Shown here in pieces: positions 25,291 to 29,291 of a stretch of DNA of 64,000 nucleotides. The notes under the pieces are model-generated. The model saw only the letters and a program-made list of their open reading frames with translations. It was not told the origin of the DNA and made no database searches. The DNA comes from Gammaproteobacteria bacterium (GTDB lineage Bacteria; Pseudomonadota; Gammaproteobacteria; Steroidobacterales; Rariloculaceae): contig DASWKF010000094.1 of assembly GCA_036396795.1 (NCBI GenBank), forward strand, positions 33,061 to 97,060, given 5' to 3'. Position 1 is the first letter of the stretch, and the number at the start of each line of letters is the position of its first letter. Position numbers and translations under genes: made by a program.

Positions 25291-26388
25291 ATGCGCGTTG
25301 TCCATCTCGAAGCCGGCATGCAGCTCTTCGGCGGCGTGCGGCAGCTACGCTATCTCGTCCAGGGCCTCGGGCGCCTCGGCGTCGACAACGTGCTGCTCTG
25401 CCCCCGGGGCAGCGCGATCGCGGGCTCGGGAACGCCGGCCGAGGTCATCGAGCTTGCGATGCGCGGCGATCTCGATTTCGGAATGCGCCGCCGGATCGCC
25501 GAGGTGCTGCGCGCCGTGCGGCCGGATCTCCTGCACGTGCATTCACGCCGCGGCGCGGACCTCTACGGCGGCTTCGCCGCGCGTCGCGCCGGCGTCGCCG
25601 CGGTGCTGACGCGCCGGGTCGAGAGCGTCGAGCCCGGCCCCTGGGCACGCTTCAAGTACGCCGCTTACGATCGCGTCATCGCGATCTCAAGGGCGATTCG
25701 CGCGCAACTCGTCGACGACGTCGGGCTTGCGCCCGGCCGGGTCGCGCTCGTGCCCAGTGCCGTGGACACCGAGCTGTTTCATCCCACCGGCACGCGCGGG
25801 CGCTTGACGGACGCCTTCGGCCTGCCGGCGGACGCGCGCGTGCTCGGCTGCATCGCGCAGCTGATCCCGCGCAAGGGGCATGAGCTCCTATTGCGCAGCT
25901 TCGCGCGCCTGGCGGCGCGCTTTCGGCGCTTGCATCTGGTGTGCTTCGGCGAGGGCGGCTTGCGCGCGACGCTCCAGCGCCGCATCGAAACCTTGGGCCT
26001 GAGCTCGCAGGTCAGGCTCGCGGGCTTCAGAACGGACATCGCCGAGCTGATTCCTGAGCTCGATCTGCTGGTGCATCCGGCCGAGCGCGAGGGGCTCGGC
26101 GTGGCGGTGCTCGAGGCCATGGCTGCCTGTGTGCCGGTCGTCGCCTGCAGCGTCGGCGGCGTCGTCGACCTCATCGAGGACGGGGTGACCGGCTTGCTCG
26201 TGCGCCCGGGCGACGAGCTCGGCCTCACCGATGCGATCCAACGCGCGCTCACCGACTCGGCGCTGCGGACCCGTCTTGCGGACCGCGCGCGGCGAGTGGC
26301 CGAGACGGAGTTTTCGGTCGCGCGCATGGTAGAAGCTAATCTCGAGATCTATCGACAGGTGCGACGGGAACATGGCCGAAACCGATGA
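25291..26388 (+). CDS. Glycosyltransferase family 4 (GT-B fold)
   Basis: 365 aa. C-terminal [20 protein letters not shown]...G motif typical of GT4/GT1 retaining transferases. Confidence 0.8.
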
Positions 26389-26875
26389 GGCGCTGGCGGC
26401 GCTCGCGCGCGAGCTCGGCGGCGCCTTGAGGAAGGCGGGCGTCAAGGTCGCGACCGCGGAGTCCTGCACGGGCGGCTGGCTCGCCAAGAGCATCACCGAC
26501 GTCGCCGGCAGCTCGGCGTGGTTCGGCTGGGGCGTCGTCAGCTATTCGAACGCGGCCAAGGCGAGCCTGCTGGGGGTGCCCGAGACGCTGCTGGCGGCGC
26601 ACGGCGCGGTCAGCGAGCCGGTGGTCAAGGCAATGGCGGAAGCCGCGCGACGCAGCGGCGGCGCCGACCTCGGCGTCGGCATCAGCGGCATCGCCGGGCC
26701 CGACGGCGCGACCCCCGGCAAGCCCGTCGGCACGGTCTGGGTCGCTTGGGCGAGCGGTGACGGCACTCGGGCCGAGCATCGCCTGTTCGCGGGCGACCGC
26801 GACGCCGTGCGCCGGCAGAGCGTCGCGCTGGCGCTCTGTGGGCTCTTGGCCGAGCTCGACCGGCGCCCGGCTTGA
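26372..26875 (+). CDS. pncC: Nicotinamide-nucleotide amidohydrolase PncC (CinA C-terminal domain)
   Basis: VATAESCTGGWLA...GVVSYSNAAK...GISGIAGPDG motifs, 167 aa. Immediately upstream of the recA region, as in pseudomonads. Confidence 0.88.
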   Translation: MAETDEALAALARELGGALRKAGVKVATAESCTGGWLAKSITDVAGSSAWFGWGVVSYSNAAKASLLGVPETLLAAHGAVSEPVVKAMAEAARRSGGADLGVGISGIAGPDGATPGKPVGTVWVAWASGDGTRAEHRLFAGDRDAVRRQSVALALCGLLAELDRRPA

Positions 26876-27423
26876 CGGCGCCGGTTTCGGCAGCGCAGGC
26901 CGGAGGCCCGGCGCCGCGCCGGCGGGTGTTCTTCGCGCTCTGGCCGGACGCGGCGACGCGCAAGGCGATCGTGCGTGCGAGCCGCCAGGCGGTGCGCCGC
27001 AGCGGCGGGCGGGCGGTGCCGGAGGCGAATCTGCACATCACGCTCGCGTTCCTCGGCCCGATCACGCCCGAGGATCTCGATCGCGTGCTGGCGATCGAGC
27101 CGCCGCCTTGCCGACCCTTCGGGCTCAGGCTCGAGCGCCTCGGCTTCTGGGACGGCTCGCGCGTGCTTTGGATCGGCCCGGCGGAGACCCCGCCGGCGTT
27201 GCTCGAGTTCGAGCAAGCGCTTTGGGACGGGCTCGTGGCGCTCGGCTTTACGCGCGAGCGGCGCATTTACCAGCCGCACCTGACGGTGGCGCGCAAGGCG
27301 CAGGCGGCGCGCGGCGAGGTGACGGCCGTGACCTGGCCGGTGTCGGGCATCGCGCTGGTCGAGTCGCGGCCGAGCCCGCGCAGCGCGCGCTACGAGGTGC
27401 TGCGCGAGTGGGCTTTCGCGTGA
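26872..27423 (+). CDS. thpR: RNA 2',3'-cyclic phosphodiesterase ThpR (LigT, 2H family)
   Basis: Two HxT/S motifs (HITLAFLG and HLTVARK). TTG start overlaps the pncC stop; start uncertain. Confidence 0.78.
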   Translation: MTAPVSAAQAGGPAPRRRVFFALWPDAATRKAIVRASRQAVRRSGGRAVPEANLHITLAFLGPITPEDLDRVLAIEPPPCRPFGLRLERLGFWDGSRVLWIGPAETPPALLEFEQALWDGLVALGFTRERRIYQPHLTVARKAQAARGEVTAVTWPVSGIALVESRPSPRSARYEVLREWAFA

Positions 27424-27430
27424 GGCTGTC

Positions 27431-27516
27431 GGAAGACGCGGGAGCGGCGATATAGGCCCTCTCGGTCAGAGTTTCACATTCCCTCGAGGACCTATATCCC
27501 CGCTCCCGCGTCCTCC
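27431..27516. repeat. Hairpin unit 1 of the paired element upstream of recA
   Basis: Arms 27431-27456 and 27491-27516 are 24/26 complementary. They enclose a 34-nt loop containing core CTCTCGGTCAGAGTTTCACATTCCCTCGA (27459-27487). Confidence 0.8.
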
Positions 27517-27533
27517 GGGTCGCCGTGGCGTTT

Positions 27534-27615
27534 GGGGCGTGAAGGCGGCGCCATGGGTGCTCGAAGGAATGTGAAACTCTGACTGAGAGCGCCCATGGCG
27601 CCGCCTTTACGCCGC
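27534..27615. repeat. Hairpin unit 2 of the paired element upstream of recA
   Basis: Arms 27534-27560 and 27589-27615 are 24/27 Watson-Crick complementary (26/27 counting G-U). Loop 27561-27589 is the reverse complement of the unit 1 core (27/29). Confidence 0.8.
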
Positions 27616-27727
27616 GCGGAGTAATTCTCGGTCGAGCGGCGAAAAAGCAGCGATGTTCCGGCTCCGAATCTGTGGAATAATCGAGCGCACATCTTTCTTC
27701 GTAGCACTCATAGCCCGGGACACACAT

Positions 27728-28751
<1,024 letters not shown>

Positions 28752-28774
<23 letters not shown>

Positions 28775-29240
28775 TCCGGACGCGGATCCGGCCGACGCCG
28801 AGCGGCGTTGCCGCCGGCAGGCCATGGACTTGCTGGCGAGGCGCGAGCACAGCCGGCTCGAGCTCGAGCGCAAGCTCGCTACCGGCGGCTTCGAGCCGCT
28901 CCTGATAGCGGCCGTGCTCGACGGCTTGCAGCGGGACCGCCTGTTGGAGGAAAGCCGCTACCTCGAGAGCTTCATCCGCGCGCATGCGCGCAAGGGCAAG
29001 GGCCCGGCGCGCATCCGCCTCGAGCTCAAGGAGCGCGGCGTCGCCGACGGCCCGATCCGCGACGCGCTGGCGCTCGCCGGCTTCGACTGGGTGGCGCTCG
29101 CGGCCGAGGCCCGGGCGAAACGCTTCGGAATGGTTCGGCCGAAAGACTTCAAGGAACGTGCGCGGCAGGCGAGATTCCTGCAATACCGGGGCTTTACGAC
29201 CGATCAAATCAATGCGGCACTGGATCTTGCGGCCGATTAG
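28752..29240 (+). CDS. recX: RecA regulator RecX
   Basis: [19 protein letters not shown] and three-repeat helical RecX pattern, ~162 aa from GTG 28752 (alternative ATG 28824). Directly after recA. Confidence 0.85.
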
Positions 29241-29291
29241 CATTAGCGTGCGTTCCCCGACGCCGGGGGCACCCGCGAGAGCCGTAGTCCA

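Follow-up and report, generated by a model that had tools for sequence, protein, structure and literature searches.

BIMEs are built from the REP or PU units of Enterobacteria and Pseudomonas (PMC2817692; PMC3733652), and REP families are characterized by a bias of location and a grammar of dimers, some of them having no transposase (PMC3733652). REPs have been proposed to form hairpin barriers at 3′ ends (PMC3733652). REPINs are doublets of inverted hairpins, and are paired with RAYT transposases (PMC3116915; PMC3337134). Template switching that inverts a hairpin loop and restores the pairing of its stem has also been described (PMC8794818).

We examined the 304-nt spacer between thpR and recA in an uncultured gammaproteobacterium (MAG of 3.69 Mb in 134 contigs, 63.6% G+C, 97.16% complete), whose RecA is closest, among named relatives, to those of Woeseiaceae and Steroidobacteraceae MAGs (81–86% identity). 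The spacer contains two long inverted repeats. We consider it likely that the two hairpins form a single A/B doublet, joined tail to tail, and belong to a lineage-specific family of palindromic DNA repeats that are dispersed between genes and built like BIMEs or REPINs. This copy is an insertion between the thpR stop codon and the promoter region that is conserved upstream of recA, and not an element dedicated to the control of recA.

Coordinates are those of the window, the whole 64-kb stretch of DNA that was analysed. Gene order at 25291-29287 is GT4 glycosyltransferase, cinA, thpR, recA, recX, alaS; there is a 4-nt overlap between cinA and thpR (26872-26875) and, in other assemblies' gene calls, another between recX and the end of recA. 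The thpR CDS (26872..27423, plus strand; LigT-type 2′,3′-cyclic phosphodiesterase family) was assigned from its ORF, Pfam matches (LigT_PEase, 4.9e-15; 2_5_RNA_ligase2, 6.3e-13) and gene calls of other assemblies, and ends in the stop codon TGA at 27421-27423 (+). Directly 3′ of it lies the degenerate head motif of unit 1, GGCTGTCGGAA (27424..27434, +), recognized by comparison of the head motifs of 21 units, for which the family consensus is GCGNNRTCGCAC. The A-type hairpin of unit 1, GACGCGGGAG...CTCCCGCGTC, occupies 27435..27512 (+) and is supported by its inverted repeat, by the covariance model (95.5 bits, E 2.5e-17) and by folding; in this recA-upstream copy four extra pairs extend the stem to 27430-27517. 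Its non-palindromic core (27455..27492, +), delimited by family alignment and column conservation, consists of the conserved junction GGCCCTCTCGGTCAG / ATTCCCTCGAGGACC flanking the variable tip AGTTTCAC. A tail linker, CTCCGGGTCGCCGTGGCGTTTGG (27513..27535, unstranded), separates the two units and is related to the family tail linker CTCCGGGCTGCGGTGGTGGCATGGGG seen in the flanks of other tail-to-tail doublets. Unit 2 is a B-type hairpin on the minus strand (27536..27613), reading GGCGTAAAGG...CCTTCACGCC, with the same kinds of support (inverted repeat; covariance model, 93.6 bits, E 6.3e-17; fold); its core (27556..27593, −) has the tip class of unit 1, and its head motif, ATTACTCCGCGC on the minus strand, is at 27614..27625.

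The segment from 27620 to 27727 (+) is conserved in the genus, as judged by alignment with three same-genus genomes (G002, G003, G004), and is the probable promoter and leader of recA, outside the repeat. It contains the motifs CTGTGGAATAAT (27670-27681, +) and ATCTTTCTTCGTAGCA (27691-27706, +), and is followed by the recA CDS (27728..28774, +; Pfam RecA, 1.5e-145; exact protein on at least 23 contigs). The pair CTGTGRAATAAT and ATCTTTCTTCGTAGCA (27670-27706) is kept upstream of recA in four species of the genus, the latter motif lying ~20 nt 5′ of the start codon. Their possible roles are those of promoter, operator or leader, and neither motif fits the classical CTGT-N8-ACAG SOS box.

Two hairpins had been proposed here by a first-pass annotation made from the sequence, and their arms agree within 2 nt with the inverted repeats that we computed, at 27430-27461/27486-27517 (32 nt, 91%) and 27536-27562/27587-27613 (27 nt, 93%). 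It had also described the two loops as reverse complements of each other, and indeed the 18-mer GTCAGAGTTTCACATTCC occurs once per strand, at 27465-27482 (+) and 27566-27583 (−), with 0.02 matches in shuffles. The loops have this relation because the whole units are inverted copies placed tail to tail, and the loop match is unusually good (27/29) because both units carry the same tip class. The stems had been called unrelated, which proved mistaken: one whole unit, inverted, matches the other over 60 nt at 82%, ~13/22 bases are common to the two 5′ arms when aligned position by position, and the stems are two subtypes of one family, represented in the window as A (GACGCGGGAG...) and B (GGCGTGAAGG...). 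The outer ends had been described as not being inverted repeats; this fits the present copy, where the head is degenerate, but not the family, whose consensus head GCGNNRTCGCAC stands outside each hairpin.

RNA folding of the 196-nt region yields two separate hairpins at −128.6 kcal/mol (z = −10.0), and DNA folding yields −69.5 kcal/mol (z = −8.5), with 0/200 shuffles as good. Kissing loops or a long-range core-core helix had been suggested as well, an option that arises because two inverted copies adjoin. With 60-nt arms that are 82% complementary, a long hairpin of the REPIN type is indeed possible, but the doublet constrained to this fold reaches only −115.9 kcal/mol and is less stable by 12.7 kcal/mol than the pair of local hairpins. 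No Rfam family scored at its gathering threshold, the best being eukaryotic miRNA-precursor models (46 bits vs. 268); such sub-threshold matches, which included one RAGATH model, were rejected as generic long-hairpin artefacts.

The core is dispersed in the genome, as the first-pass annotation had thought worth checking: it occurs at 9 sites with ≤3 mismatches, compared with 0 for a control pattern. A covariance model of the unit was built, and iterated nhmmer together with this model found ~29 units at ~20 loci of the MAG, all intergenic; the only two within the window are those of the recA-upstream doublet. Each unit is ~100 nt long with its head, the hairpin alone being 78–88 nt, and has four parts. 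The 12-nt head GCGNNRTCGCAC is followed by a stem of ~27 bp that is of type A (GACGCGGGAGCGGGGA...) or type B (GGCGTGAAGGCGGGGA...), in which the middle 5–6 bp vary from copy to copy while complementarity is retained. Next comes the conserved asymmetric junction, GGCCCTCTCAGTCGR ... ACTCCTTCGAGSACC, and within it an 8-nt hypervariable tip that falls into few classes, such as AGCTTCGC, AGTTTCAC and GGGGCAAA. The middle of the stem (alignment columns 24-28 and 69-73) shows almost only transitions in an alternating purine-pyrimidine sequence, both arms always changing together; in type A it reads RYRYA (ATGCA, GTGTA, ACGTA and ATATA, for example).

The units follow a mosaic grammar like that of REPs and BIMEs, with alternating orientation and conserved head-to-head or tail-to-tail spacers. 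Nine tail-to-tail doublets (A, then inverted B) share the linker CTCCGGGCTGCGGTGGTGGCATGGGG, three of them completed only through metagenome contigs (two across MAG contig breaks, and one restoring an A unit lost from the MAG), and two head-to-head junctions share the linker ATGCGCGATCGCAC. MAG contigs break inside the repeats, and metagenome contigs (L030, L036, L024) join C116-C5, C63-C86 and C86-C55 across doublets, and C19:1-33 overlaps the terminal unit of C55. The spacer between putA and an aminotransferase gene (L176:396-800 = C71:54900-55340) holds an intact doublet together with older relics that comprise head and stem-foot, TCGCGCACGACGCAGGG and CGTCGTGCGACGGCGCACGGCGC among them. 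These relics suggest repeated gain and internal deletion at one site.

Several other identities were considered for the unit. Insertion of the core into pre-existing terminators was rejected, since the outer stems, heads and linkers are themselves conserved in the family. A tyrosine-recombinase-type core site, with two arms and an 8-nt spacer, was likewise rejected, the junction halves matching as inverted repeats at only 5/11 positions. Integron attC sites would have R″/R′ sequences (RYYYAAC / GTTRRRY), and none were found; the stems have GACGCG/CGCGTC or GGCGTG/CACGCC at the foot, and the dispersed units alternate in orientation. As for MITEs, the doublets do end in inverted head motifs, there is no evident duplication of the flanks, none of the alleles that lack a unit has an ancestral look, and no IS with matching ends was found. 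The family has no sequence likeness to any catalogued REP/BIME family. It is a new BIME/REPIN-like family with an unusual unit, having a long variable stem, a conserved junction and no tag.

Like REPs and BIMEs, the copies are dispersed and extragenic and lie mostly downstream of genes, on crude gene calls, most units starting 3–60 nt past a stop codon. Among 18 loci with both flanks available, 11 are convergent, 6 tandem and 1 divergent by whole-contig ORF calls, which are crude; the background of intergenic regions is 236/656/363, respectively (p = 9e-5 for the convergent excess). The lone divergent locus is the one between putA and the aminotransferase gene. At the window copy a consensus scan found no sigma-70 promoter, and a terminator scan found no terminator-like site within 27300-27800. 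The hairpins are followed by CCTCCGGG and GCGCGGAG, neither with the U-tract of an intrinsic (Rho-independent) terminator, so that the thpR terminator offered by the first-pass annotation is conceivable as a side effect only.

Pairing was examined across 27 units. Pair cells are standard in 96.2% of cases, versus 39–52% when the partners are slid, and 19/28 pairs have changed on both sides, with 127 double-changed cells compared with 39 in shuffles. Such compensatory change, the very stable fold, the conserved junction sequence and the position of most units just past a stop codon, where they would be transcribed, are all as expected of a structured RNA with a function, be it the 5′ leader of recA or a regulatory or stabilizing element of 3′-UTRs whose loop is a protein or sRNA site copied as a regulon signal. 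Against this, one-sided changes of the G-U type account for just 5/755 cells, and it is the scarcity of such cells alongside compensatory change that makes a duplex-DNA palindrome a better fit than a selected RNA. The units also lie either way round with respect to the neighbouring gene, the genes beside them are functionally unrelated, no Rfam family was found at threshold, the loop inverts between strains with nothing else changed, and natural variants lose units, hairpin 2 of the window copy included. Orthologous recA spacers all lack the structure. The structured-RNA explanation is thus, in our estimation, very improbable.

Comparison of recA loci bears on the same question. Three same-genus genomes conserve the ~110 nt nearest to recA but have an unrelated distal spacer of different length, and the covariance model found units at 0/84 other recA loci. 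Since only this proximal segment is kept, other recA loci have no units, and one natural variant does without hairpin 2, the doublet has been inserted where the spacer is variable. The structured recA 5′ leader of the first-pass annotation is therefore not supported.

The family was not found in same-genus genomes or in 230 other relatives. Its junction pattern was absent from 40 relatives, four same-genus genomes included, and the covariance model gave 0 convincing matches in 84 genomes of the taxonomic family and 150 of the order. Exact searches for the pattern were negative both in 185,579 species genomes and in viral contigs, and blastn yielded no match to the family in plasmids and phages. 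Twenty metagenome contigs do carry the family, all from the same organism at 99.5–100% identity. The family is restricted to one species. A single covariance-model match outside the species (L041; G059:C2:275595-275733; 139 nt, 38 bits, E = 5.5e-4) probably represents a long hairpin with no relation to the family. Mobility of the family is suggested by its dispersed, species-restricted distribution alone.

What might have moved it was sought among known enzymes. The first-pass annotation had raised a REPIN-like doublet recognized by a RAYT-type transposase. The doublet part is borne out, there being ~29 dispersed units that form dimers with conserved linkers after gene 3′ ends; the RAYT part is not. 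No six-frame match to the Y1_Tnp domain of RAYTs (PF01797) was found at E ≤ 0.01 in the 97.16%-complete MAG, although six control genomes were positive, and this absence from an incomplete MAG is not proof. Nor was a TnpB match found in this assembly. The search for recombinases found one serine recombinase (PF00239, C106:3027-3308) and three IS110-family transposase matches (PF02371; C76:11903-12136, C83:892-1110, C64:91-246), none adjoining a unit.

A true REPIN-RAYT system would consist of non-autonomous doublets moved in the form of single-stranded hairpins; the enzyme would be a REP-associated tyrosine (HUH) transposase whose gene the fragmented MAG happens to lack. The 134 contigs, several of them broken at repeats, leave room for such a gene, and the doublets of two inverted hairpins with a short spacer, their species-specific distribution and 3′ intergenic positions, and a conserved junction with mismatches that could be the recognition feature of the enzyme would all suit it. 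The negative PF01797 search in a nearly complete assembly counts against it, as do the lack of an unpaired GTAG or CGTC tag, a unit 2–4 times longer than REPs, and an arrangement of variable stems with a conserved junction, opposite to that of RAYT-bound REPs (PMC3733652). More than 20 assemblies of the population showed no new insertion. On balance we think a RAYT-driven system quite unlikely.

Near-identical genomes of the population differ by inversion of cores and by loss of units. Independent assemblies (JGI pipeline, MEGAHIT) were compared through exact-protein look-ups, at 99.9% identity. The 38-nt core at C90:176507 is forward in four assemblies and exactly reverse-complemented in four others, two of the four reversed cores lying inside contigs of 201 kb and 26 kb. 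Upstream of parE (C124:37725) six assemblies have the core in canonical orientation; the MAG and a MEGAHIT contig of 40.8 kb have it flipped. At both loci, then, each orientation is found inside long contigs from different assemblers, and the loop inversions are known from assembled contigs alone. A third unit, C71:55033, has the non-canonical orientation in 7/7 assemblies. Orientation is invariant at the window locus (10/10) and at C19:34540 (9/9 new assemblies), which argues against random flipping by assemblers. An apparent loop flip at C19:34540 in L020 was discarded, being at a contig end and contradicted by nine other assemblies. Small loop inversions are known in plastid non-coding hairpins.

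Deletions take several forms. The whole 85-nt unit at C90:176507 is missing in one assembly (L069), where the allele retains the head motif of the A unit, and so is read as a deletion and not as an empty target site. At the window locus 9 of 10 independent assemblies are identical, and the tenth (contig Ga0299906_10006267, locus L060) lacks the 67 nt from 27538 to 27604, nearly all of hairpin 2. Downstream of parC (C124:33400) the MAG and L080 show a deletion of a unit between CCGCG repeats, and at C63:4571 the MAG has a deletion that leaves a recombinant unit, A at its 5′ side and B at its 3′ side, in place of the full A unit of L031. New insertions were absent from the more than 20 assemblies of the population, all polymorphisms being inversions or deletions. 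At the start of one contig, upstream of parE (L081:1-95), is an A unit with the 5′ arm of the parC-downstream unit and the 3′ arm of the parE-upstream unit, which are 4.4 kb apart. It would have arisen by chimeric assembly through the core that the two units have in common or by recombination between them, and it looks like a contig-end chimera.

Exact inversion of a conserved and asymmetric 38-nt core between identical flanks, at two loci in one population with a third locus fixed in the non-canonical state, brings to mind programmed mini-invertons, in which the arms would be sites of a dedicated invertase and core orientation would switch termination or protein binding. In duplex DNA a 38-bp segment between arms of 22–27 bp is too short to synapse, given the geometry of recombinases. 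The sole serine recombinase gene and the IS110-type genes adjoin no unit, both core orientations are already present in each doublet, and the invariance of the window locus and of C19:34540 is also at odds with a switch. Stems are perfect in 3/3 of the units found non-canonical, versus 7/24 of the others, and the perfect stems of flipped units fit template switching. Mini-invertons are accordingly an extremely improbable explanation.

Our preferred reading, a family of palindromic DNA repeats, has the element acting at the DNA level. Replication template switching across the hairpin would invert the loop and copy one arm from the other, keeping complementarity, and would thereby explain the perfect stems, the multi-base compensatory changes and the lack of G-U intermediates. 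Palindrome instability may lead to the central deletions and to those of units between microhomologies. Effects on expression would be by-products: by analogy with proposals for REPs, the transcribed hairpins could be a 3′ barrier or insulator, and at the window such a barrier could end or stabilize the cinA-thpR transcript ahead of the recA promoter.

Conservation is not uniform along the unit. Identity between copies within a stem type is 88–94% for the junction, 77–84% for the arms and ~50% for the tip; the first-pass annotation was correct in setting the repeat apart from classical REPs on the ground that in those the stem is the conserved part. Conservation of the junction above that of the arms is not predicted for a purely neutral repeat, and in these alignments hints at a sequence-specific partner, a protein or an enzyme. 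The junction might be what a hairpin-binding enzyme or a host protein recognizes, in which case the conserved core, variable arms and flipping loop would define a distinct class of hairpin element with its own propagation mechanism apart from RAYT-driven REPs; we hold this stronger proposal to be unlikely.

For annotation, the structure before recA is a repeat copy partly lacking in some strains, and not a recA riboswitch, leader or SOS element. For repeat biology, the family is BIME-like with the logic of REPs reversed (junction conserved, stems variable) and no detectable RAYT. It provides a clear natural record of long palindromes in a wild population, in the form of exact loop inversions, central deletions and recombinant units, and is a convenient natural system in which to test template-switch models of how hairpins are maintained. 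A binding partner of the junction, if true, could lead to a new propagation mechanism.

Compared with BIMEs (REP/PU units; PMC2817692; PMC3733652), the family is alike in its two subtypes of intergenic palindromic unit in alternating orientation, in head-to-head and tail-to-tail dimers with conserved spacers, heterodimers being common, in a strong bias to the 3′ side of genes, between convergent or unidirectional ORFs, and in copy number and presence that vary among close relatives. It is unlike them in size, with hairpins of 78–88 nt and a stem of ~27 bp compared with 20–40 nt and 5–13 bp for REPs (PMC3733652). It has no unpaired GTAG or CGTC tag, its unpaired head being GCGNNRTCGCAC and CGTC occurring only as the paired foot of A-type stems, and it conserves junction and loop while the stem varies, in only ~29 copies. 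The CGTC-tagged REPs (PMC3733652) are similarly a palindromic family with no associated transposase gene, and A-type stems read GACG...CGTC; in those REPs, however, the tag is unpaired, stems are 8–9 bp and loops 4–5 nt, whereas the CGTC of the present family forms the paired foot of a long stem and is missing from B-type units.

REPIN-RAYT systems (PMC3116915; PMC3337134) share with the family the two inverted hairpins with a short spacer that can fold as one long hairpin, the restriction to a species, and singletons resembling decayed doublets; unlike them, the family has no RAYT gene that we could find, favors local hairpins by 12.7 kcal/mol, and gives no sign of current transposition. Template-switch mutations (PMC8794818; PMC5453318) offer another parallel, with a non-complementary loop exactly reverse-complemented between unchanged arms, multi-base compensatory stem changes that lack G-U intermediates, and perfect stems in flipped units. 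The published cases mostly concern 4–8-nt loops in rRNA or eukaryotic DNA, whereas here a 38-nt core of a bacterial repeat is found in both states in one population.
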